Part shown: positions 30,567-59,340 of the stretch, one piece after another
Layout of the letters: every line of letters begins with the position of its first letter
How positions within the stretch are numbered: the stretch's first letter is position 1
NCBI GenBank assembly: GCA_965287045.1
Contig: OZ336885.1
Location: 22,072,001-22,136,000 of the forward strand
Direction of reading: 5' to 3'
DNA from: Carcharhinus amblyrhynchos
Taxonomy: Eukaryota
Length of the DNA: 64,000 nt
Program-made: the position numbers and the translations under genes
Notes under the pieces: model-generated
Database searches by the model: none
The model's input: only the letters and a program-made list of their open reading frames with translations
What the model was told of the DNA's origin: nothing

Positions 30567-33500
30567 CTATCTCACCACAAGACATGATACACAAAGTTTA
30601 GATGGGCCTATACAATCATCATGGCAAAATGCTCCACATCCTTTGCACATGATCATGGCCTTTAATCTGCAAGAACATTTAAAAGTCATTTCATTGACAC
30701 CACTGCTTTCAGCAAATGTCTGAGCAGGAACTGCAGAATTATGATTCCCAAAGTTTGCCTTCTGACTCAGTGACATCACACTTCCAGCAAGAGATGCTGG
30801 AAAGCTACCCATAGAGAGTTCGGAAACTGATGTGTTAGTGATATGACTGAATCCTGTAGTACTGAAGGAAAGTTTAGGAAGTTTGCCATATAACTGCTGC
30901 TGAATACTGAGCTGGGAATTGATGAGAGAATGTTCCGAAGAATGCTGAAATTGTAGACCAGTCTCTTTCATAACCTTTCCAATATTGCAGTCCATCTTAA
31001 TTGGTCCAACATATAATTTGTCTTTGGAATCAAATGGAATGTATGCACCATCATTTATACCAATAATGTCTTGATTTTGGTTATTTCCCCGACATGCAGG
31101 GATATTTTCAGTTTTGATGACTTTAAAGCTTTCATGCAGTTTAGGAAGCCAATCCCTTCTTACATTTGGCATACCCTCCATTCCAATTAAATTCCTCTCT
31201 GGTGAAGTCTGAGAAATGGCTGGCACATGCTCAATAACAGAACCCTTTGACTGAATCTTAATTACTTCTGTTGCTCTACAGCTTCCATCATTTTGCACAA
31301 CTACAGTGTTATGCAAATAACCATGGCTAACCTTTTGCCTCACTGGCATCCCACTGCAAGCCTTCGCTATTACTGAACCAAATATAGTGTTCTGAGTTTC
31401 CAGATTTTTACAAAAGGTTGGTGTGTTCGGAATGTAATAGCCAGACACAGTAGAGCTACTAATTTGCTTTAACGTTTCAGGCATGCTTCTCATTACAGGA
31501 TTTTTCAAATTGGGATTCTGTGTGTTTCCAGAGGAAACATTCATTAGTTCTTTGCTACCATCTTCAAAACTGCAAGCAGCTGGTGTTATTTTGTGTGTTG
31601 CTGTCCCAGACTCTTCAACAGGCCTAGAAAGAATTGGCATTCTATTTAGCTGCTCTTGTAATACTGAATCTTCCCCTAGACTTTTACAATCTCTGTCCAA
31701 GACCATCTGCGATTGCACATAATGCTTACTGGATTGCAATACAGTTGATTTCATCTGCTCCAGACGTTTTTGAGACAGATCTCTGAAATCTCCTGACAAT
31801 ATTTTATGCAAATGATAATCGGCTAACTTGATTCCACTGTGTACACCACTGATTATACTTTTGAGATCCGTTGTTTGTGCAACATGATCAATAGTCGACT
31901 GACTGAAATTTCTTTCCTGCTTAGCTTGCGGGCTCTCGGAAGGAATTGGAGGTGGAACAAGCAACTTGGTTATTTCCAATTTTGTACCAGAATGAGACTG
32001 TGGCAAAACCTTCTCTAAAGGAAGGCTGCCCTGTAGTAACTGTGAGACCAAGGGGTTGTTGACTTCAACCGATGACAGTGGTCTATTAAAATTACCAATC
32101 CTTTTCGGCTCCTCAACACTTGGCCGTAGTGAAGAGTCAGTCTGATTTAAATTATACAAAGTTTCAGGCTTGTCGTTCTGACACTCATTTGGTCTTTCAT
32201 CTTTTTGCAGCTGATTCTCCTCCGGCAACTGTAACTGTTTGTGTGGATCACCATTATCAGTCCCTTTGCAGGCATCAGGAATTTCCACAATTACACCACT
32301 TTTAGAACAAACAGGGGCTCTGTCATCTTTAAATATTCTTTCATTTGTGGGTCGTATACAACTTTCATTGGACAGCTGGCTACTTATTTCAACGTTACAA
32401 TACAATCCATTCTTGTTCATGTCACTTCCACAGTTTTGTTTCCCTTTGCTGGTTAGCTGGTCAAAGGCATCCTCTAATACTGCAACATCAGATTCTGTCG
32501 ACTGGCGTCCACCATCTGCCGCTGCCTGCTCTGGTTTGTTAAGATGTTCTTTCACACATTCTTCTGCGTCAACAGAAGCAGAACAGTCATGCTCCTTTTC
32601 AAGTCTCCCAGACTCCAGAGAAACTTTTTGTGCTAATGAATAGCTGGGATCTTTATTGGAACATGTTGATACTATTACAGATGTCAGTTGTTTCTCTGCA
32701 ACATGTGGCTCATGTGACATATCCGGCAATATGCTAGTGTCTAGCTTATTATTTACTTTTACTTCAACACAATCACTCTCCTTTTCTTCATGTGACGGCA
32801 AAGTTAGAGAGCAAGTGACTTGATGGATAAACGGAGATCCGATTTCCTTAATGGTGCATCGATTTACCTCTTGCTCACATGGGTCAATTTCTGGAAATTC
32901 AATTGATAGCTGGGTTGACAAAACATCTGTAGTGCTTGCTTTAGTTTCAATGTCATTACTTGGTAATGAATCAGATGCTGCATTTTTCACCCCCACAACA
33001 TGGACATCCGTAGTGTTGAAAACTACAGTATTCTTTGTTTCTGCAATGACGGTTCCAGCAAAACAATAGTTTTGAAGAGGTTCCTCATTGCAAGCTGTTT
33101 TATCTTGTGGACTAGGCGTCCGAGTTTGATCACAGGGTGAATTCACAGGATTGTCAGTCTCAGAAAGTGAAAGGATCACAGTTTCACATTTAAGATTTTT
33201 GCTAGATTCTGTACAGATATCATCATTGTCTGCTGGCAATTCCAGTGTTTCAGGGACTGCATCATCCTGAAAAATAGTTTCATCACTGTCAGTCTGCCCA
33301 TCAGAAACCACGATGTCACTAAGTTGGGAAACAGTAACTTGGTTAGATTCTTGCACATCCAGCACCAACTCTGGTGATTTACTGCTAATTACAGTATAAC
33401 TGGCATCACCACCCAATTCAGTTTGCTGGATGTCATCTGCTGTCATCAATTTATTTTGTGTTGTGTCAATTAGATTGCTTTCTACACATTCTTCGATTAT

Positions 33501-33893
33501 AACACCTTGCTTAACACTAATTTCTCCATCGCTGGGTTTTTCTGGTTCATCTGTTGCGCAGGTTTGGAATAGCTGTGCTCTATACTGATGTTTTGCTGTA
33601 GTTTGTTCAACAACTTTTGTTTTTCCGTCGGCTGGTCCGGGGGAATCAGTGCCCCGTGGTCCACTACCACTACTACCCCTTCCCCCTCCTTCCACTGTAA
33701 CATTGGCAGCTGCAGCTGCTGCAGCCTCCCTTTGTGCCCTGGCTTGCTGAGCACGGGCTTTGATATCTGCAAGTGTTCTGGCACCTGTCCTTTCTCGACT
33801 GACTGTCCCAACTGTAGTGACGATCCTGGGGCATATCTGGTAGGTTGGCTGCCCTTTGACAGCCCAAGGAGGTTTGATTCTTGAGAGTTGAAT
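30567..33893 (-). CDS. ASXL1: ASXL1 large terminal coding exon (3327 nt, 1108 aa + stop): ASXM1 ([10 protein letters not shown]...[12 protein letters not shown]), ASXM2 with LVSQLL box (32034-32051), C-terminal PHD finger (30570-30677)
   Basis: Acceptor ttttgcttccag at 33894. The frame is continuous with the 1042-aa ORF ending [36 protein letters not shown], and TAG is followed by TAA. The ORF-track start at 33695 is an internal GTG. Confidence 0.95.
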
Positions 33894-36800
33894 CTGGAAG
33901 CAAAATAATGCAAATTTATTTAGAATGCTTTTGCAAAACTGGTTCTACACAAAGAAAGCAACTAGTTATACCCTGCGCAACATTTTGGTAGAGACATAGA
34001 TCCTTCTACAATTGCTAATAATTTCAAAACACTAATCTGATGAAACAAAAGGGAAAATTACACATTTAAATCTGAAACAAAAACAGAAAGGACTAAGACT
34101 ACAGAACACATTGTTCAATCTGTAAAGAGAAAAGGCAGGTTATCAGTGTCTGACTTTCAGAACAGGAAGTCATTAACATGCAAACAAAATATATTTTATC
34201 ACCAAACCTGAAATATTCCATACTTTTCCCTCATCTATTCGCACCATGCTGTTATGGTTTACCAATTGAATGTACATTCATAGAAAAATCAGGAATAAAA
34301 AGGAAAGCTTCTTGTTCTAAATAAATAAATCAACAGTACATTCTGGTTCCTGCAAAAAAGAGCTGAGGCGAGTGGTGTGCTTATGCAGTATCTCATCACA
34401 TCCTTTGGATTTCCAAAGCACAACATTAAACTCCAATTAAGTCATCATGTTGGAAAACAAGAATTTCAATCCAAAGTTTCATTTCTTTTTAAAAGATAAT
34501 ACCATATGATGAGGAAGAAACGTTGGTCAAGACACCATGAGAAAACTTTCTGCAACATCGTGGAATCTTTTAGGTCTACTTGAATGTCAAAAATAACTGT
34601 TCAACATTGCTTGAAAAGAAAGCACTACGCTAGATCAGCCCAGAAGGTGGACTGAAGTCCACAATGGGACTTGAACCCATAACACCTGATTCAGACACAG
34701 GTATGCATCAATTGAGCAAAGCTGCTGTAATAGTCTCAGAGAAGACACGTAAATTTTAAGATCTTCAATTTACAAAGCAGAATATATTCCTCATAAAACC
34801 CTGTGTAATTATTAAAACCTATTATCAAAATATCTTTCCTTGCAAAAATGGGTTTTCAACCTGGAATCAGCAATTTGCCTGGAACCAAGCACTTTCAGCA
34901 CAAGATCTCAAGAGTTCAGTAATGTTCAATATGAGCAAACTTACCAATATGTTAGTTCTATTGTAGAAAATATTTTCATTGGTATCCACGAATGCCAGTA
35001 ATGTTTTCCATTGGATTGCTGACAGGATTTGGGATAAGACCCCAGGAGGGCATTAATAATTTCGGGGAACCCCCCGACATAAAGGGCTGAATTTGACCAA
35101 CCCCAAGCTAGCATGTTTCCCACAATGGGGAAATAGGTGAGTACCTGTGCCTGAATCAGGTGTTATGGGTTCAAGTCCCATTGTGGACTTCAGTACACCT
35201 TCTGGGCTGATCTAGCATAGTGCTTTCTTTTCAAGCAATGTTGAACAGTTATTTTTGATATTCAAGTAGACCCAAAAGATTCCATGATGTGGGTGGGTGC
35301 TGCACACACCCAATCTCAACCTTACAATTCAGAGGGCAGGCAGATGCTGGAATTGGCAGCCCACTATCATATTATGGGTCAATTCAGCTCGTTATCAAGC
35401 TAAATGACCCTGATAATTCAGTGCCCACACCATAAATTTGTGGACGGAAGGGTGCGTGCTGGAAGTCTGTTTTTTTAAACTGAAATAGTCAAGGGAAGAT
35501 GTTTGCTCTTCAATCATAGGGCGACCCCTCCACCCCCCAAAATCTCAAGACTGAATACCTACCTTCCTATCCACTCCCTCACTTAACTTCCTCCTCCTCC
35601 TTCATTGATTCAGTCTACACTTTCCACTGCCTTGCAAAAGCAGCCAGCATAATCAAGGACCCCCACGCACTTCAGACATACCTCTCCTTTCCCTCTGCCC
35701 TATGTAATCCATGAACATTACGTTTCTTCTGTATATCACCCAAGAAGCAATACTTTTCATGTACACCAATACACGTGACAACAATAAATAAAAATCAAAC
35801 TACCCTCCCACCCAAATTCCTGTAGCCCTCTGAGCCAAGAACCTGAAATTGCTTGTTACATGGATCCTAGGCCTTGGGCTCCACTTCTAACTGACAATCC
35901 CAGTCTCCTTGAAGCTGCCAGCTAAGTGGATAGGCTGACAGCTCTACGGGGCAAGATATCAAGTCCCACTCGGCCCTCATTAATGAGCCCCACAGCACTT
36001 TTATTGCTCCGGTGTGACATGGAGCCAGTTGGTTCATGCTGTCCTGGCTTCTTGGTAGCTGGTGGGTTGGCTGGGGAGGGACATTGGATTACTTCCATCA
36101 AAAGAAAAATCAGAAAACACTTCCATGAGATTTAACTCATGTGCACTATGGCATATACATGATCAACTACATACCTTATAAATGCACATTTGTCAACCTA
36201 CAGAGCCAATGACCGCCAATATCCAATCAATGGGCACAAATCCAACAATAATTCAAGACAAAAATTTACTTTATTTTAGGCAACAGAACCAGACTTTTTT
36301 GTTTTATAATGCATCTTTTCCATTTACACTTCCTGTATGGGGTCTGGATCAAGCAGTATTGCAAAGAAGAAACCTTTCAACTTAAGAGAATTGTCTGTTT
36401 TAAAATGAAAGCCGCCATAGGAATTTTTTGGCACAGAAAGAGGCCACCTGGCTCATCGTGCTTGTGCCAACCAGCCTCCTCCCACTTTCCAGATTTTGAT
36501 CTGTAATCCTACAGGTTATGGTCCTTCAGGTGCAAATCCAGACACCTTTTAAATTCAAAGTGGTTTTCTGTCTCTACCACCCTTTCAGGCAATGAGTTTC
36601 AGAACCTTACCTCCTTCTGGCTACAACAAAAGCCTCATGGCCACTTTAATCCATGTACCAATCACTTCAAATATATGCCCCCTAGTTTGACGGAATGGAG
36701 ACCCATTCACAGTATCTAAGTTCCTCACAGTTTTGAGCATCTCAATTAGATCTCCCCTCAGCCTTCTCCATTCTAAGCAAAACAGTCCAGCCTGTCCAAA

Positions 36801-37536
36801 CTTTCCTTAAAAGCTGCAATTTTCCAGTTCTGGCAACATCCTCAAATCCTCTAGTGAAATTATATTGTTACTGCAATGAACTGCACATGGAGTACTCATG
36901 TTGTGCCCTGACAAATCTTTTACAGCTCCAGCATAACCTCCCTGCTTTTTTTATTCATTCTTTTGGCTAATAAATCAAAGGATTTCATATATTTTAACCA
37001 CAGATTTGACCTGTCCTGCTATTTAACACCAATATCTTCTGCCTCCACATGATTACCTTTTTGGTCTTTTATGGGCTGTAATCTTTCCTTAGCTTCTTAC
37101 TCAAAGTATTGAGGAAACATTTCTGAGTTCACCTTGATTTTGCTTGCCAATATTCTTTTCATGTCCTTTCTCTGCTTTCTCAATTTCCTTTCTGATTTCA
37201 CCTCATAGTCCCCTCAGCTTTCTATAGCAAGGTGGAATTGAGCTTTTATTTGGCATGAAGTAGAAAGTGGGGAAAATATTTTTCTCAAGCCAGGTTTGGC
37301 TTGAATGGACCACCACATTTCCTTGACTAAACTTTAACTCCAGAAAAACAAAGCAACGCTGTAACTGTCCCAAATTACTTTGCATCTCATCTAAGAAAAG
37401 TAAAATTGAAACTAAAATGATTTTTGCAAGTAATGATTCAACGTTTTTAAAAACACACATACCCTAATAGGTGGCACCTTTGGCTCTTCTTTTGTAGGAT
37501 GTTCTTTTTCTGTCCGAAAGCTATCAATTGCGGTCC
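33497..37536 (-). CDS. Overlapping +1-frame transframe ORF (ASXL1-TF), spliced 37536-37463 + 33893-33497, 156 codons, with EHSY motif
   Basis: ORF-track entries 37447-37653 and 33497-33913 join in frame at the ASXL1 splice junction (CTA TTA GG|A TTC). The ORF starts directly after UCC_UUU_C; EHSY is at 33569-33580. Confidence 0.78.
34555..35290. repeat. 149-bp inverted duplication (34555-34703 and 35142-35290) with 6 mismatches
   Basis: Manual alignment of one arm to the reverse complement of the other: 143/149 identical, no gaps, 438-nt spacer. Confidence 0.9.
36390..37200 (-). mobile_element. Degraded CR1 LINE 3' portion
   Basis: Antisense CR1 phrases (ctcaattagatctcccctcagccttctc; tctggcaacatcctc). 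Confidence 0.65.
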
Positions 37537-38213
37537 GAAAGGACTGATGATCATCAAGACGTGGCTTCTTCTCAGGGCCAGAGGTGGAGGCACTATGTTC
37601 AGAGGACTTTCTCTTTTGGTCTTTGGACTCTCCGGAATTGTGCTCCAACTCACTTTTCAAAGCAGCGCTCCTTAGAGTTAAACAGGTGATCTGATCCTTA
37701 GAAATTCCAGCAGGTTGCACATCAGTCAATTCTAAACGTCCATCAGATGTGATATGTTCTTGAGATTGTACACCAACTGGTCTTTCTGCAAGCAGTATAG
37801 GTTTGGAGTTTAAGGCAGATTTATTTGGAAGAATTTCTTCTAGCTGTCCAGGTCTAGCTTCATTTTTAATTAAACTCAGCTGATCTTCATCTGCACAGCT
37901 AACAGCATGAAACACCTTGGCTTCATGATTTTGCTGTTTCTGGCTCCTCGTATCTTGAGAAGAGACTGTACATGAAACTGTTTTTTCACTTGGTTCAGGA
38001 AGTTCAATCTGTGTTTCTTTAATAAGACTCCGCTTCACTCTGCATTTGAGGTCCACCTTTGAACTTCTAGTACATTTCCTTACTCTTTCATCCTGCTTTT
38101 TAACCGGACTTTGCTGTTTGGATGGCCCTGCTAATACAGGTGAACTGGCTTCATTTTCTATTTCCACTTGTACGGATGTCTGATGTTCTGATTCTTCTTT
38201 TGACAAGCCCAGT
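37463..38213 (-). CDS. ASXL1: ASXL1 penultimate exon (751 nt): [11 protein letters not shown]...[37 protein letters not shown]
   Basis: Lies inside ORF 37412-38260. Acceptor gttgacag at 38214 and donor GTATGT at 37462. It ends in [12 protein letters not shown] as in ASXL1. Confidence 0.92.
37535..37543 (-). promoter_or_regulatory. +1 ribosomal frameshift motif UCC_UUU_CGG in the ASXL1 zero frame
   Basis: The minus strand reads CAT CAG TCC TTT CGG ACC. This is the UCC_UUU_CG class used by influenza PA-X, at the S-F-R position of ASXL1. Confidence 0.75.
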
Positions 38214-40504
38214 CTGTCAACATAACCAAAATAAAGGTATTCAGATATATTGGATTGCATTGGAAAGCAATTTCTTACAGTGCTAAAAGTTCAGTTTTCC
38301 TTATTTAGATTTTATGTTGAGGTTGGATTCTACTAATCTGATTGAATTCCATCTGCAATCACTATCCTGAAGAAAGAATTTCTGCAGTTTAAGCCAATGT
38401 GTTAGCAAATATCCTGAGACATGTGGCAAAGATCCAATAGAAAAAGACATTTTAACAAAAATCATTTTAATCCATATTTGAAAGGCATGACTGCACTGAA
38501 AATTAGAAAGAAACAAATTTCAAATCAATAGGCTTTCGAAGAAGAATGCAGTTCACCACTGAACAAAATGGGTAGACAATGCACTTTTAATGCACAAATT
38601 GTCTTTGCAGAAATACTTATATTACTGGCAGAAGATTATACCATGGGTTTAGTACTAAATTTACTTAAGTAATGTGAGGCTGCATTAACATAGGCTTAAT
38701 TCATAATTGGGATGACTAGTAACTGTTCTGACTCTGGATTGCGTAGGACAAACATAACAAAAGCCAGAGCCACCCACAGATACCAACCACCATGCTGAAT
38801 ATGGAGTGAAATGGTTTTATGTACTCACATCCCTGGCATCCCTTCCTAGGTGAGTGAACTTGTTTTGTTAGATAGATTTGTGTGAAATACAACACACATT
38901 CGGGGCAAGAAACAAATGTCGGTTTGGAACATGTTACAAATTTTGCAAAGCTACTGTCACAATATAAAAGGGAATTTGAATCAGGGGTTAGGATATCACA
39001 ACTTACAAATTGAAGGGAACTGAAATACTTCGTGCTAAAAAGTACCAAGATTGAAAGTGTGATAAAATTCACTCATAATTGATGTTTAAAGAACAATGAA
39101 GAATGGTTCACAGGAAACCTTGCTTGACAAGATGGAAGATTATGTGTAGAAATTGGCAAATTTGCTGTGCAAAATTGACACATGAAATACGTAAAACAAG
39201 TAATTTTTCACAACTTAGCCAAATAATATACAATGATCCTTAATATGAATCTATTTTGCACAGCAAACCATAGCAAAATTTGACACACTAAACTTCAAAG
39301 TGAGATTCCATTCTGGGAGTGCAGCTAATGCAACAGCACCCAATTGTGCCCAATTAAGTGATTAGTTAGATTCTATGAAATCCTCATCACACGAAAGATA
39401 ATATTACAGAAATATCTATGAAGGTACTGAAGAAAACATTACAAATCAGAATGTGACACTAGAATTATGCCACTTGGAAGATCATTTTTTTCAAGTAAAT
39501 GGCTAGTCACTTCTAGGAGGGATAATCTACCTTTCTTCTTGGGTTGTCACTCTACATACCATCTATAATTCAGCCGCAACATTAATTCACAGAGAGGTGG
39601 GATGACTGGCATACCTGAAATCAAGGGAAGGTCAAGTTGTGTTCATCGTTCTTAATAGATAGATAGATCTAAGCAATAATGTCTCAATAATGGACTATAG
39701 ATTGTTCTATGGCAGCTGCTCTGTTAAGTCCTGTTAAGCAGTTGTCATCTTACGATTTATGTAGCTGTTTAAAAAATAATGTTTTGGATAATTTGTGGGA
39801 ATACTGATTAAACGCTGCAAGTACCCACAAGTAATAAAACACTTTTGTTAGCATTTTCAGACCCAAGAAAACATTGGAGCTTTAAAATGTCAACAAATCG
39901 CAGGTTGCATTCACAGGAGCTGATATTGCAACAAAATCGTGCATTTATACAGTATCTTCAAGGGCTTGTAAAATATTCCAAGGCACCTAACAAGAGTGAT
40001 ACAAACAAGTTGAAGGAAATATGCAAACAAATTTGTCAAATAAGCAAATAAACTTCAGGACGCTTAGAAGAACTTCATCGGAAAATGTTCCCATCATCTT
40101 TAAAATTGGTTCCTTGATAAACTCAAGAAGTTGTGGCCAACATTAAGTGGTGGCTATATGTCTACAGCCATCAGGATCAGACATCCAGAAAGTTTAGGTA
40201 CAAGGTTCGTACTTTATATGGACAATCCTTGCCTATCATTTCATGTTTAAAATCACAAACTTCCTGTATAGACATTATATAGGTACAAAAATATTTATCT
40301 TGAATATCAATAGATATTTAGATGATCAAGTTTTTTGAACAGTATTCTAAACTTCACCCTCATTTCAGAGCATTTGAGAGAAACATACTCTTAGGCAACT
40401 AGAAACAAAATCTATTGGTTGGTTGAGGACTAAATGTAACAAAATTAAAACATGCTCATTTGCAATGGAACAGAATGGTTTTCAATATAGTTGCAAGTTT
40501 ATTT

Positions 40505-40870
40505 CATTCTTTGATGGAATTTAGGCGCCCCGGGCAAGACCTGCAGTTGTTGGCTATTCAAATCATCTTTGAACTGAGTGGCCTGCTGTGCCATTTTGGA
40601 AGGCAGTTGACAATCAACCACATTGCTGTGGATCTGGAGTCACATGTAGGTCAGACCAGGTGAGGACAGCAGATTTTCTTCCCTCAAAGGCCTTAACGAA
40701 TCAGATAGGTCATTTTTAAGACATTTGTCATTACTGAGACGAGCTTTCAATTCCAGGTTTCATTAATTGACAGCTGCTATGATGGAATCTGAACCTACGT
40801 TCCCCAAGCATTAATCTGGGTTTCTGGATTACTAGTCAAGTAACATTACCACTACGGCACCATCTCACTG
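40505..40870 (-). mobile_element. tRNA-derived shark SINE-like repeat
   Basis: tcaaccacattgctgtggatctggagtcacatgtagg core shared with the 27625 copy. Confidence 0.65.
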
Positions 40871-41540
40871 CAAAGTATCTTGATGTGTATGGGGTGAAAA
40901 GATGGCACCAGAGAATCACTAGACGTAGAACTTAATTCTAGGTTTTCTCCAACAGTAACCAAAATAGCGAAGAATTGCTAATGCTCTAGTTATACTCCTT
41001 TTTGATTACCACTTAATTAATTTTCCTCTGTGGAGGATGTTTGATGTGAACTCAACCAAAATACAAAGCCAAGCAGAAGAACAACCATGTGAGCTTCAAG
41101 AAGAGCTTGCATTGATATAAAGCCTTTCACAATCTCAGGATGCCAAGCATCTTACAGGAAATGAAATACCTTTGAAGTGTTTCACAACCCAGCAATCAAT
41201 GCACAGAAAGCACAAATTTCAATGAGATACTGACCTAATCATCAGTAGCGAATAGGCATGAGGGATACATTTTGGCCAGGATACCGCGAGAACTCACCTG
41301 CTCATTGCTACAAAGTGTCACAGGATCTTTTATGTTCACCTGAGGGGGAAACGTAGCCTCATTTTAAGGTCACAAATTGGCATTTTAGACATTGCAAGGG
41401 TCCTTTCTTTTTGCTGTGCATGGGATAGAACTATCAATTTCTAAAATTGATTGTTAGTAAATGGATTTCAGGAACTTAATTTTTCCTCTTCATGTACCTC
41501 AGCAAACTAACTAGATATGTTTAATCAGAAAGTTGCTTAC

Positions 41541-41646
41541 TTCTGCCCATAATAATCTTCAAAAAAATTCTCTTTCCACAGCTCTACTTTCTTTTCTTTC
41601 TCCATTTCTTGACGTAGGCGAAGTTGCATTTCAGGTGTGAATTCAC
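41541..41646 (-). CDS. ASXL1: ASXL1 exon (106 nt), end of DEUBAD: [35 protein letters not shown]
   Basis: Manual translation. Acceptor ttatgtag and donor GTAAGC; phases agree with the flanking exons. Confidence 0.93.
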
Positions 41647-50568: not shown

Positions 50569-51110
50569 ACGTAAGAACATAAGAACATTAGTAGGAGCAG
50601 GAGTAGGCCATCTAGCCCTTCGAGCCTGCCCCGCCATTCAATAAGATCATGGCTGATCTGAAGTAGCTCAGTTCCACTTTCCCGCTTTCTTCCCATAACC
50701 CTTAATCCCCTTGCCTACCAAAAACCTATCTACCCGCGTCTTAAATATATTTAGCGAGGTAGCCTCCACCACTTCAACGGGCAGAGAATTCCAGAGATTC
50801 ACCACCCTGAGTGAAGAAGTTCCTCCTCAACTCCGTTCTAAACTGCTCCCCCCTTATCTTGAGGCTGTGCCCTCTAGTCCTGTCCTTTCTGAGCCGGAAG
50901 AATCTCTCTACCTCTACCCTATCCATCCCCTTCATTATCTTATATGTCTCTATAAGATCCCCCCTCATCCTTCTAAACTCCAACGAGTACAGACCCAGTC
51001 TATTCAGCCTCTCTTCATAGTCCAACCCCCTCATCTCCAATATCAGCCTAGTGAACCTCCTCTGCACTCCCTCCAAGGCCAAGATATCCTTGCGCAAGTG
51101 CGGCGACCAA
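50569..51110 (-). mobile_element. Young 5'-truncated CR1 LINE 3' end, same subfamily as 48741-49204
   Basis: WSPHLRKDILALEGVQRRFTRLI...RTRGHSLKIRGEQFRTELRRNFFTQ; tandem TAAGAACA tail. Confidence 0.9.
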
Positions 51111-51606
51111 CGTAGAGAAAATGTAATAGAATTAGCAGTATTTTGTACACCAGTCAAAGCTAATGTACTCCTAAGCTAATTTCCATTAAAAAACATTAAT
51201 AAATAAGCTCAGCGTGAGTAAATCTGTTTGGGCTCACAAATGTTGGTTCTTGCAGATAAAACATTTTAAAAAGAGCAAAAAATCCACAAAAAACCAAAAA
51301 TGCTGAAAATGTTTCCATCAGCCAAACAGGTGCTGTCAAGGGAAAAAAGATAGTTTTCAGGTCAATCATTTGATGAAAGCCTTTGACCTGAAACATCAAT
51401 TCTGTTTCTCCATCCCACATACAAAATAAAATTAAAGGTTACACCATGAGCAGCAGCAAGCGAGTCAGAATCAATACATTGGTTAGAGGCACTGAAGATG
51501 TCTCCAAATTAGCTATCATCCAGAATGAGGAAGAGTCAAACATTTCTAATTTATCTGCTTTTGTCTTTCCACTCATCGCAATTTGCCTTTAAATAAAAGC
51601 GTATTA

Positions 51607-53759: not shown

Positions 53760-56700
53760 AATGCCAATTCTCAAAAACATAGTTCAAAGAGGATATCCTT
53801 AAGAAGCAAGGACAGAATCCATTTGATTGGAATTGAGAAGCAAGAGAAAAGTATGGTCACACTACTGGCAGTATTCTCTAAGCCTCGAAGTAGTAAGAGA
53901 TGGAGAAACAAAGCAGGGAAATCATGGATGTATAAAAATAGAGTGGTGAAATCGGGGATTTGAAATCTGGAAGAATTATCCAAAACATGGATTGGGATTG
54001 ACCACATCTCGTCGTATACTTCCTGTGAAAATTCTCTAGTGCAAGACCATAAAGGTAGACCTTAGCAAGGGATAACAAAAAGGAAAAGGGAGGAATTTCT
54101 GAAATGCGTTCAACAGAAGTTCCTTAAATCAGTTTGTTCTTAGTCTAACTGAACTATATTGCTGGATCTGGTGGGAAGTGAGATGGGACAAGTGTCTGTG
54201 GGGGACAGTGATCATTACATTTAAAACTAGTAATGAAAAGCAAGGAAAAGTTGAAAGAAAAATGACTAAATTGGAAGAGGGTTAATTTTGGTGGGATGAG
54301 GGGGGGGACCGAACCATGGTAAAATACAAACGGAGACTTACAGGAAAAACTGTAAAATAACAATGATCTATAAAGGAAGACATTCTTCAAGCACAAGGCA
54401 GATACATAATGTAACAGAAAAGAAAGGAAGGGGAGGTCAAGGTGCATGCCAAGATTCGAGTGAGTATTTTAATCAGTGTTTATAGAGGAACAGCTGTTGA
54501 TAAATCGTGATGTTATAGATAAATGGATTGGATGATGAAAATTGATAGGTGCAAAATATTAGAAAGGCTGGTTATGCTTTGAGTGGATAAATAGATCAGC
54601 CTGGATGGTTTGCATTCAAGTTGTTCATGGGAGTGGGGAATGGGGAGTGGAAAGGCTTACCATGATTTTACAAATTTTTTGAAATATGGGGGAGGTGCCA
54701 GAAGAGTGAAATGAGGCAAAAGTGACACTCAAGAAAACGTGCAAGGACATACCAGTAATTACAGGCTGATCAGTTTAAGATCAGTGATGGATAAGGTTTT
54801 AGAAACTAGGTGATTCAAGTTAACAGAAAGTCAAAAGGATTTGTAAAAGGCAGACCCTGCTTGACTAATCTAATTGATTTTTTGATGAAGCAACAGAGAA
54901 GGTTGATGATGGGAATGTGATGGATGTTATCTGTATGGATTTTAAGAAAGATTTTGACGAAGTACCGCATTAAAAGGCTGGCAAACAAATCTGAAGCTCA
55001 TGAAACAACATGGCTAGTGTCAACTTCAATAAATATTTGGCTTATGGACAGAAGACAGGAAGCCACAGTAAATGATTGCTTTTCAGGCTGGAGAATGGTA
55101 GACACTGATGTTCACATGGGTCAGTGTGAGTACCATAGCTTTTTTGTTGTATCTAAATTACTTGGATGCTGAAGCGGAATTCAGAGTCAAATTTCAAACT
55201 GCGTCTACACTGCAAATCATGGAGTGGCAGCAAAATGATACCAATCAACTCAAACAGCACATAGGATACTCACATACAATGGGCAGATGAGGGTAGATAG
55301 ACTTTACTGCACTTTGGCAGAAGGAACAGGGTGAGGCAAAATAAGCTTAATAGCACTATCTGAAGAGTGTGGAAGGGCGGAGGAACTAGGGTTCATGTGC
55401 ATATCCCTTTGCATTGTGCACAGCTTGAACTCCCTGGCTGACTAAAGATAAAGATTAAAAATGTTACGCAAAACAAGCTCAGGAACCTGATGTTTATCAC
55501 ATTGCAGAGAACTAATCTGTGTATAAAAAGTACAGGGCAGAACTGAAATTAGAAAGAACAACAAGGGTTAGTTTAAGAATAAACTAGCAGATGTCATCAA
55601 AGAACATACAACACTTCTATGAGACATCCATATAGTAGTGCGTGCAGATTTGGTCCCCTTACCTCCAAGTGGATGTTATTGCTTTACAGGAGTGCAACGA
55701 AGATTCACCAGACTTGTTCTGGGGATGACAGGACTAACTTGAGAAGAGATGAGAATCAAGTGAAAAAAGAAATAAGGAAATCAAAGAGAGGACATGAAAA
55801 AATACTGGTAGGCAAGATTAAAGAAAACCCAAAGATGTTTTACCAGTGGATAAAGAGCAAAAGGATAGTTGAGGAAAAAGTGGGGCTATCAGAGATGAAG
55901 GGAAATTGTGTGAAGATGCAGAGGATATGGGAAGATGCTTAAATGATTACTTTAGTCTCTGTATTCACTAAGTAAAGGGATAATGCAGACATAGCAATCC
56001 AAGAGGAGCAGTGTGAAATGGAGGAGTTGGAATACTTAGAAGCAGATAAGTTGCCAGGACCAGATGGAATTGTTCCCCTAGGATGTTGAAAGAGTTCAGG
56101 GAGGAAATAGCAGATGCTGTGTCTAGTGAAGATTGGAAAATAATGTTCATAGGGAAGGTGCTATAGGCCTGGAGGAATGCAAATGTGGTTCCATTATTTA
56201 AGAAGAGTATGACAAAAATGCCAAATAATTATAGACTGGTTAATCTTACATCAGTAGTGGGCAAATTGTTAGAATAATCTAAAGAGATCAGATAAACAGT
56301 CACTTACAATGGCAAGGACGAGTCAGGGATAGTCAGCATAGTTTTAAGGGAAGGTCGTGCCGTACAAATTTAATTGAACTCTGAGGCAGTGACAAGAAGG
56401 ATTGAGGAAGACAGTATAATGATTATTTGTCTTCATGGATTTTAGTAAAGCATTTGACAAGGTCTCATGTGGCAGACACGTCAAAAAAGTAAAAGCTGAT
56501 AGGATGCAGGATAATAAGGCAAGTTGGATCCAAAATGACTTAGTAACAGGAAACAAACGGCAATGGTCGACGGCTGCCTTTACTTATCAAAAGTTGCTTC
56601 AAGTGGTGTTCCGCAGGGCTCAGTGTTGGAACCCCTGCTGTTTGTTTTATATATCAGTGATTTGGACTTGAATGTGGGGGGCATGATTGGGAAATTTACA

Positions 56701-57340: not shown

Positions 57341-58866
57341 TAGAACATAGAACAGTACAGCACAGGATAAGCCCTTCGGCCCTCGATGTTGTGCCAAGCT
57401 ATGCCCGAACCCAAGATCAAGCTATCCCACTTCCCATCATTCTGGTGTACTCCATATGCCTATCCAATAACCGCTTGCAAGTTCCTAAAGTGTCCAACTC
57501 CACGATCACAGCAGGCAGTTCCACACCCCAACCACTCTGAGTAAAGAATCTACCTCAGACATCCCTCCTACATCTCCCACCATGAACCTTATAGTTACAT
57601 CCCCTAGCAACAGCTACATCTACCCGAGGAAATAGTCTCTGAACATCCACCTATCTATCCCTCTCATCATCTTATAAACCTCTCAAGTCATTTCTCATCC
57701 TCCTCCACTCTAAAGAGAAAAGCCCTAGCTCCCTCAACCTTTCCTCGTAAGACCTACCCTCCAAACAAGGCAACATTCTGGTAAATCTCCTCTGCACTCT
57801 CTCCAATGCTTCACAACCTTCTTATAGGGAGGTGACCAGAAATGCACACAATATCCCAAATGTGATCTCATCAAGGTTCTGTATGGTTGTAGCATAACCC
57901 CACGACTCAAACTCAAACCTCCTGTTAATAAACGCTAACACACTATAAGCCTTCTTCATGGCTCCATCTACTTGACAGGCAACCTTCAGAGATCTGTGGG
58001 TATGAACCCCAAGATCTCTGTTCCTCCACATTCCTCAGGACCCTGCCTTTGACCCTGTAATCCACATTCAACTTTGTCCTACCAAAGTGAATCACTTCAT
58101 ACTTATCAGGGTTAAACACCATCTGCATCCTATCAATGTCTCTTTGCAGCCGACAACAGCCCTTCACCTCGCCCACTACTCCACCAATCTTGGTGTCATC
58201 AGCAAATTTACTGACCCACCCTTCAGCCCCCTCCTCCAAGTCATTAATAAAAATCACAAATAGCTGAGGACCCAGCACTGACCCCTGTGGTACACCACTG
58301 GTTACTTGTCTCCACTCTGAAAATTTTCCATCCACCACCACCCTCTGTCTTTATGAGATAGCCAGTTACTTATCCAATCAGCCAAATTTCCTTCTATCCC
58401 ACACCTCCTTACTTCATGAGCCGACCATGGGGAATCTTATCAAGTGCCATACTAAAATCCATGTATACGACATCAACTGCTCTACCTTTGTAGACACACT
58501 TGGTTACCTCCTCAAAGAATTCAATTAAAATTTGTGAGGCAGGACTTGCCCCTCACAAAACCATGCTGGCTATCCCAGAAGATTAAGCTGTATCTTTCCA
58601 AATGGTCATAAATCATATCCCTAAAGACCTTTTCCATTAACTTACCACTGTAATAAGGCTAACTGGCCTATAATTACCAGGGTCATTCCTATTTCCTTTC
58701 TTGAAGAGAGGAACAACATTTGCCACTCTCCAGTCCTCTCGCACTATCCCCGTGGACACTGAGGGCCCAAAGATCAAAGCTAAAGGCTCCGTAATCTCAG
58801 CCCTTGCCTCCCAAAGTATCCTAGGATGTATCCCATCTGGCCCAGGGGACTTAGCAACCGTCAGGT
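57341..58866 (-). mobile_element. CR1 LINE 3' 1.5 kb (RT to tail), frameshifted
   Basis: VTSGVPQGSVLGPQLFVIFINDLEEG...SKFADDTKIGG RT motifs; tail TAGAACATAGAACA at 57341. Confidence 0.9.
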
Positions 58867-59340
58867 TTTTGCTGACTAGGTTGCCAGAAGAAATAGATGC
58901 CTCTGCCTCTCTCTCTCTCTCCAGAGATATTCTGAAAGATCTAGGAGTGTTAACTTAAGGCAAGCAAGCATGCCTGTGTTTTGCTAACTAATTTTGAAGA
59001 GCTTCAGGGATTGTTGCAAATTCTGAATTAATTCTTTAATTCCATTTATTCATTCCATAGGAGGACTGATGCCTGAATTGGGACTCAAGATACGTTAACA
59101 ACTAAGAATTTTATCTTGTCACGTTTCTGTATTATTCAAGGTTAACCTAATTCATTTGTTAGAATTAAGCTGTTATTCATGAAGTTTTTGATAAAAGCTT
59201 TCCAGTGTGTCAGCAGAACTGCATCTGGAGTGAAACATCTCATCCATGCTAATACCAAAACAGAATATTGTCGACTTCTTTTAAGGATCTAGTCTGGCTT
59301 CATGATATATCTTGGGATTTCTAATCTGATCTCTTAGTAT
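58867..59340 (+). mobile_element. Partial LTR-like element related to 21130-21606
   Basis: Shared 3' phrases ctaataccaaaa and gatatatcttgggatttctaatctgatctctta. Confidence 0.4.

Follow-up and report, generated by a model that had tools for sequence, protein, structure and literature searches.

Does the ASXL1 gene of sharks encode, beside its full-length protein, a second product that ribosomes reach by slipping into the +1 frame? The question is raised by a window of 64,000 nucleotides (nt), the whole stretch of DNA analysed here, from Carcharhinus amblyrhynchos (assembly GCA_965287045.1, contig OZ336885.1, positions 22,072,001 to 22,136,000). The host gene, on the minus strand of the window, is an ASXL1 orthologue. 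In protein comparison its last exon is 97% identical to ASXL1 of Mustelus asterias, 68-97% identical to 14 elasmobranch ASXL1 sequences and 43% identical to Callorhinchus milii. A preliminary description of the window proposed that this gene makes a minor frameshift isoform. What stands of that claim is a dual-coding region with a probable +1 slip, while expression by frameshifting is the part that is unproven.

The concept is already published, as the preliminary description acknowledged. In the available text of Dinan, Atkins and Firth 2017 (PMC5644247), a transframe (TF) open reading frame (ORF) is reported for ASXL1 in 200 species, with C. milii, the sole CGG exception at the site, included. 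The same text reports an EH[N/S]Y motif for binding HCF-1, escape from nonsense-mediated decay (NMD) and an analogy to the truncations of leukaemia and Bohring-Opitz syndrome. The TF peptide is reported to be disordered. In print, TF expression has been argued both as frameshifting and as splicing, with neither shown. The present copy extends the ASXL1 element to elasmobranchs and marks CGG as the form of cartilaginous fish. The reading favoured here is that the TF isoform of shark ASXL1 is probably made by a low-level +1 slip at UUU_C.

Slip site, open frame and motif

The zero frame of exon 12 contains CAG UCC UUU CGG at a distance of 81 nt from the donor. The predicted shift site UCC_UUU_CGG (S-F-R) occupies 37535..37543, and GGA, beginning at 37536, is the +1 A-site codon, exactly as first described. 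From GGA the TF ORF takes 74 nt of exon 12 (37463..37536), or 24 2/3 codons, crosses the last junction (GG|A) and continues in exon 13 (33497..33893) for 131 codons to a TAA at 33499-33497, giving 156 codons in all. The last upstream +1 stop, which the preliminary description placed near 37657, is a TGA at 37657..37659, 41 codons before the +1 A-site codon. The junction itself was likewise correctly called, with 37463 joined to 33893 at GT-AG in contigs of 4/4 runs (four organisms, four studies). None of the runs is recorded as RNA; their contigs are taken as spliced solely because they join over GT-AG introns, and they carry no information on the level of expression; 15 of 29 joints and 40 of 72 difference rows cover every statement on splicing and variants made here. 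The -1 frame at the shift site was dismissed, as it meets a stop after 4 codons.

The preliminary description had passed over three features, namely the motif that is the likely purpose of the frame, a second UUU_CGG and a +1-frame AUG. The motif, EHSY, is encoded at 33569..33580 (TF residues 130-133) where the zero frame reads RAQLF, and it matches the HCF-1-binding consensus [D/E]HxY. No other [DE]HxY occurs in the two alternative frames of exons 11-13. The run in which it sits, 196 codons from stop to stop, is also the longest alternative-frame run of these exons, the next longest having 70. In 20,000 redraws of the synonymous codons that left the zero-frame amino acids unchanged, the probability of a frame open to the motif was 0.0036, and that of both openness and motif 0.00035; an empirical dipeptide estimate for openness gave 0.006. 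The ASXL1 +1 run thus exceeds chance. In searches for related peptides, the TF sequences of the three shark ASXL paralogues gave one HMMER match among 1.84 billion representatives, to an unrelated repeat protein, and an ESM Atlas search with the TF gave no usable match.

The site has the in-frame composition of the YCC_UUU_CG class: the E site is occupied by UCC, the P site by UUU_C and the A site by CGN. Set against 200 shuffles, the 120 nt 3' of it show no excess of folding (z 0.39), which parallels PA-X and PLEKHM2 and is consistent with structure-free programmed ribosomal frameshifting (PRF) rather than proof of it. The second in-frame slippery site, AGC_UUU_CGG, lies 7 codons (21 nt) downstream at 37514..37522 and leads into the same TF frame with 149 codons. 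Replacing UCC by AGC in the E site lowers PA-X shifting without abolishing it, according to the available text of PMC3498833. The second site may compensate for the weaker CGG. Since it enters the same frame, mutation of the first site would not give a null control, and the UCC_UUC_AGA mutant put forward as a reporter control would be spoiled for this reason. The +1-frame AUG, at 37554-37552, lies six codons before the slip, and another is found at TF Met89.

Conservation of the overlap

Conservation was scored on ASXL1 proteins, the set being 120 listed ASXL matches from which 4 ASXL3 proteins and 2 repeated C. milii entries were removed; of the remaining 114, 112 could be anchored. These 112 are related and hence not independent observations. 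All of them (112/112) carry SFR at the shift site, and in 110/112 the zero-frame residues are compatible with EHxY in the +1 frame. A Met followed by K, N, T, I or M, the pair that forces a +1 stop, occurs in 0/112 TF stretches, with about 0.94 expected per stretch of equal size downstream. The evidence for suppressed synonymous variation over the overlap is mixed.

In a comparison of this shark with C. milii over the 24 codons surrounding the motif, identity is higher in the +1 peptide (16/24, counted by eye) than in the zero frame (11/24). The two TF peptides have the same first 10 residues and both end in SKVL. The second SFR is present in 15/15 chondrichthyan ASXL1 proteins and 0/97 others; for C. 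milii, the zero-frame SFRT together with the published TF residues AFG would force the same nine bases at the second site.

The differences of runs X1, X2 and X6 are fully listed, and not one of them touches the site, the exon-12 part of the TF or the motif; no listed difference of any run creates a +1 stop in the TF. Among four near relatives, synonymous changes number 2 in about 116 TF sites and 13 in about 189 sites outside, which is no more than suggestive, given partial listing and cover. The other ASXL genes of this genome give a second comparison. From the site to the donor, ASXL1 and ASXL3 use identical codons at 14/18 shared residues (7.9 expected, P = 0.003), and over the whole TF at 42/75 (P 0.037). 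Control exons of the same pair are saturated (69/162 identical codons, 64.4 expected), and inertia is therefore an unlikely cause of the codon identity in the TF. ASXL1 and ASXL2 follow the same trend (P 0.019).

Counterparts in ASXL3 and ASXL2

Three loci of this genome match ASXL exons, ASXL2 (contig C7) and ASXL3 (contig C8) being on other contigs than ASXL1. The ASXL3 locus is 97% identical to M. asterias ASXL3 over 200 residues. On the minus strand of C8, at 72753221, it carries the candidate slip site CAG_UCC_UUU_CAG at the same distance from the donor (81 nt) as the ASXL1 site, with CAG instead of CGN as the A-site codon. A +1 ORF of 145 codons spans the last junction (exon 13 from 72744147) and encodes EHNY at TF residues 127-130 (motif at 72743843), within a conserved zero-frame helix. 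Under the same null, openness with the motif has a probability of 0.0006, or about 0.002 with a gentler estimate of openness (0.02); a 111-codon +1 run elsewhere in ASXL3 makes length alone a weak argument. At the nucleotide level the shark ASXL3 TF comes from one genome, and a metagenome scan for ASXL3 DNA of other animals returned 596 pattern matches, none confirmed.

Among chondrichthyan ASXL3 proteins (15 scored, 1 of 16 unanchored), [S/P]F[R/Q] is present at the site in 9, from 8 sharks and the chimaera, and missing in 6 batoids, one of which has a differently annotated junction. The other vertebrates scored gave 0/86 (18 of 104 unanchored). This pattern fits loss of a putative site in bony vertebrates and rays. 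Compatibility with the motif at the protein level was dropped as a test for ASXL3, because 69/86 bony-vertebrate proteins pass it. Heptranchias ASXL3 carries RSQLL at the motif position, compatible with DHxY. In ASXL1, the zero-frame residues under the HCF-1 motif (33569-33600) resemble the tail of a second MLL-helix-like repeat, which is intact in ASXL3.

Shark ASXL2 (minus strand; exon 12 at C7:51115389, exon 13 from 51112802) has an in-frame -2 site, CAG_GUC_UCU, which lies within exon 13 at 42 nt from its start, and its TF runs for 146 codons and includes EHNY. Its exon 12 also holds in-frame UUU_C at codons -24 (UUA_UUU_CGG) and -17, from which the +1 frame is open (185 codons). The pair is homologous in place to the two sites of ASXL1 at -26 and -19 and, like them, is seven codons apart. 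Human ASXL2 likewise has UUU_C at -24 and -17, and there too the +1 frame is open (by eye, with the junction placed by homology). No 3' RNA structure was detected in the paralogues (z -1.35 and -0.08). A CAG precedes the proposed site in all three shark paralogues as well as the ASXL2 -2 site, and is readable as a cryptic 3' splice site; in ASXL1 (37543-37546) the pyrimidine tract before it is poor, with 58% Y.

The three-paralogue comparison suggests one ancestral +1 site. It is possible, if somewhat doubtful, that one +1 UUU_C slip near the end of exon 12 predates the vertebrate ASXL1/2/3 duplications, was kept in all three shark paralogues and was lost from ASXL3 in bony vertebrates and rays; the -2 site of ASXL2 would then be later and its UUU_C pair a relic. 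For ASXL2 the UUU_C argument draws on two species, and the available text of PMC5644247 finds the -2 site alone to be invariant. A slip older than the duplications would remove the parsimony objection that sister genes use two unrelated mechanisms, and would place ASXL-TF among the oldest cellular frameshift products in vertebrates. ASXL3 is said in the available text of PMC5644247 to have neither TF ORF nor motif; if shark ASXL3 keeps the TF, that absence holds only for bony vertebrates and perhaps rays. The literature search found no paper on an ASXL3 TF and no test of ASXL-TF, with subscription journals mostly uncovered.

Routes to the product and known systems

The layout of the gene bears on what any TF product would contain. 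Exon 11 (41541..41646, by tblastn and junction mapping) encodes the end of DEUBAD and has a phase-2 donor at 41541. Exon 12 (37463..38213, by junction mapping and contig joints) has 751 nt, a length of 3n+1; its joint to exon 11 (41541-38213) is present in contigs of 3/4 runs. It is followed by a GT-AG last intron of 3569 nt (33894..37462). Exon 13 (30567..33893) contributes 1108 zero-frame codons up to the stop TAG at 30569-30567, with the PHD finger at their end (30677-30570). Two binding motifs of the zero frame, both absent from the TF product, lie close to the last junction: the BRD4 ET-binding motif, split between 37463..37480 and 33893-33873, and the MLL3/4-binding helix at 33729..33788, homologous to human residues 607-627.

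Several further observations concern the introns. An X2 contig extends 85 nt from exon 12 into intron 11 (37463-38298), as in unspliced or retained-intron RNA. The last intron contains an inverted duplication of 149 bp, 96% alike, at 34555-34703 and 35142-35290, about 440 nt apart. Interspersed repeats in introns 11 and 12 (35548-35828, 36391-36952, 40325-40886) have very high contig depth in 4/4 runs and are likely fragments of short or long interspersed elements (SINE/LINE). The frame fragments of upstream introns at 50699-51175, 55583-55942 and 57943-58954 resemble what we take to be C-termini of LINE reverse transcriptases.

With low-level slipping as the route, most ribosomes would make full-length ASXL1 and a small share, probably about 1%, would slip +1 as the P-site tRNA-Phe re-pairs from UUU to UUC at UCC_UUU_CGG, possibly again at AGC_UUU_CGG 21 nt on. 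Slipped ribosomes would translate a further 156 (or 149) codons, past the last junction, before terminating in the last exon, and the mRNA would therefore escape junction-dependent NMD. The product, of about 760 residues (F607 in two close orthologues, plus 156), would keep HARE-HTH and the BAP1-activating DEUBAD and gain a disordered tail with the predicted HCF-1-binding motif, losing the BRD4 and MLL3/4 docking motifs, ASXM2 and the PHD finger. In this the preliminary description had the layout right: DEUBAD kept, PHD lost, stop in the last exon. Such an isoform would tie BAP1 to HCF-1 in place of the BRD4/MLL enhancer partners and would be a distinct form of PR-DUB, relevant to ASXL1 disease alleles. 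The site, frame, junction and motif are read directly from the DNA and their conservation from the proteins; from these we infer the slipping, its level, the HCF-1 binding and the function.

The same frame could also be entered by splicing, through the skipping of exon 12. A joint between exon 11, with its phase-2 donor, and exon 13, whose acceptor is in phase 0, would fuse DEUBAD to the last 131 TF codons, EHSY included; a variant of this explanation would use a cryptic AG within exon 12, e.g. the CAG just before the presumed shift site. From the exon-13 acceptor to the end of the motif, no +1 stop interrupts the frame in any of the three shark paralogues, and most batoid ASXL3 proteins have lost the SF site and kept motif-compatible residues. 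A 2026 preprint (10.64898/2026.05.28.727796), as far as its available text goes, argues that a single splicing mechanism would cover all paralogues, the event being unnamed there. The exon 11-to-13 skip was not found named in the available text of that preprint, in that of PMC5644247 or in the 20 of 49 papers listed by the literature search. Skipping is nonetheless unlikely. It leaves the invariant site unexplained, as well as the constraint, which appears to extend into exon 12 where a skip would not need it; the 3n+1 length of the exon follows from inherited intron phases alone. No 41541-to-33893 joint is seen among the 15 of 29 joints listed from four runs, a weak point, as contigs drop rare forms. 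Nor is there a TF-bearing protein of 231-2000 residues among 572 candidates, in a database that includes annotated isoforms of near-identical sharks, where rare forms could be missed. Cryptic donors and acceptors in a phase that enters the TF look weak. By naming the exact skip and exposing a second slip site for shark reporters, the locus sharpens the choice between frameshift and splice.

Still less probable is that there is no functional TF protein, and that the open frame and motif are by-products of zero-frame constraint (the BRD4 motif, the MLL helix and the helix-tail remnant) plus selection on the RNA for splice enhancers or protein-binding sites. The zero frame here does hold two proven binding motifs (PMC13021927 and PMC11161652, in their available text), motif-compatible residues are found in the same 69/86 bony-vertebrate ASXL3 proteins, where the TF is reported absent, and reviewers' objections of this kind appear in the accessible part of PMC5644247. 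Yet with the zero-frame residues fixed, the nulls yield P values between 0.0003 and 0.0006 for each paralogue, and near the motif identity is higher in the +1 frame (16 of 24) than in the zero frame (11 of 24). The available text of the 2026 preprint reports selection on both frames in ASXL1 and ASXL2 and a PeptideAtlas peptide in support of ASXL1. Internal initiation at a +1-frame AUG (37554-37552 or TF Met89), yielding a free TF peptide, scarcely deserves credence: both AUGs are present in this sequence, but each is preceded by some 600 or more codons of the gene's reading frame. The AUG at 37554-37552 needs Asp followed by Asp or Glu, a pair that 13/15 chondrichthyan ASXL1 proteins do not have there, and in human no suitable AUG is available according to the accessible text of PMC5644247.

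Against low-level slipping stand several points. The accessible text of PMC12551717 calls ASXL1 PRF not experimentally validated, and there is no direct evidence of slipping in any species; that of PMC3498833 reports that PA-X shifting drops by half with CGG in place of CGU. The length of exon 12 is 3n+1 in ASXL1 (751), ASXL2 (748) and ASXL3 (1099), so that a skip enters the TF frame without recoding, and the 2026 preprint, in its available text, regards a history of alternative splicing and duplication as more parsimonious than one with two unrelated mechanisms of frameshifting. The ASXL2-ASXL3 comparison has no excess of identical codons (25/57 vs 66/150, P = 0.57), and codon identity close to an exon end may also reflect splice enhancers. 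The variant data from the four near relatives are too few; up to 6 X9 differences are unlisted, 2 of them certainly inside the TF, and X6 and X9 cover the TF partly.

Among known systems the closest to shark ASXL1 is the C. milii ASXL1-TF, which shares the gene, the CGG site, the first 10 residues, EHSY, the SKVL end and the last-exon stop. The present TF has 156 codons and that of C. milii 162, both across the last junction and both within the published range of about 126-163 codons. The only cartilaginous fish listed in the available text of PMC5644247 is the chimaera, and the present copy is from an elasmobranch. That text mentions no second slip site, no skip route through a 3n+1 exon and no ASXL3 counterpart. 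Shark ASXL2-TF is close to the C. milii ASXL2 TF described there and has the -2 site (RG_GUC_UCU) as in human, with the proposed slip inside exon 13.

Outside the family, human PLEKHM2 has the same UCC_UUU_CGG core, the same QSF-GP junction and no need of a stimulatory structure. It differs in being validated by reporter (about 1.3%) and by mass spectrometry of junction peptides, and in encoding a structured helix (PMC12551717, in its available text), whereas the ASXL1 TF is a predicted, disordered tail with a linear motif. A search of this genome for a PLEKHM2-like site pattern gave 2 matches, neither in a long ORF. Influenza A PA-X, as given in the available text of PMC3498833, likewise slips on UUU_C in the P site, flanked by an E-site UCC and an A-site CGN; it is viral, and has CGU where ASXL1 has CGG. 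The 'ASXL1-TF' of PMC8225741 refers, in the accessible text, to a transcription factor and not to a transframe product, and PMC5063410 was set aside because its accessible part deals with 5' exons only.

The likeness to leukaemia and Bohring-Opitz truncations, offered in the preliminary description, stands in part. Like the truncations 1-591 and 1-645, the predicted TF product keeps DEUBAD, loses ASXM2 and PHD and ends in the last exon. Both truncations retain BRD4 binding, and 1-645 also binds MLL3/4, through a motif at human I572-Q575 and a helix at 607-627, respectively (PMC13021927 and PMC11161652, in their available text). The shift falls at human F548 (counted by eye), before both. The BRD4 motif and the MLL3/4 helix thus lie 3' of the shift in the other frame, which makes the disease analogy loose. 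Unlike the truncations, the TF product would lose both motifs, gain one for HCF-1 and amount to about 1% of ASXL1, and on the evidence of its sequence it would swap BRD4/MLL partners for HCF-1 rather than mimic the cancer mutants.

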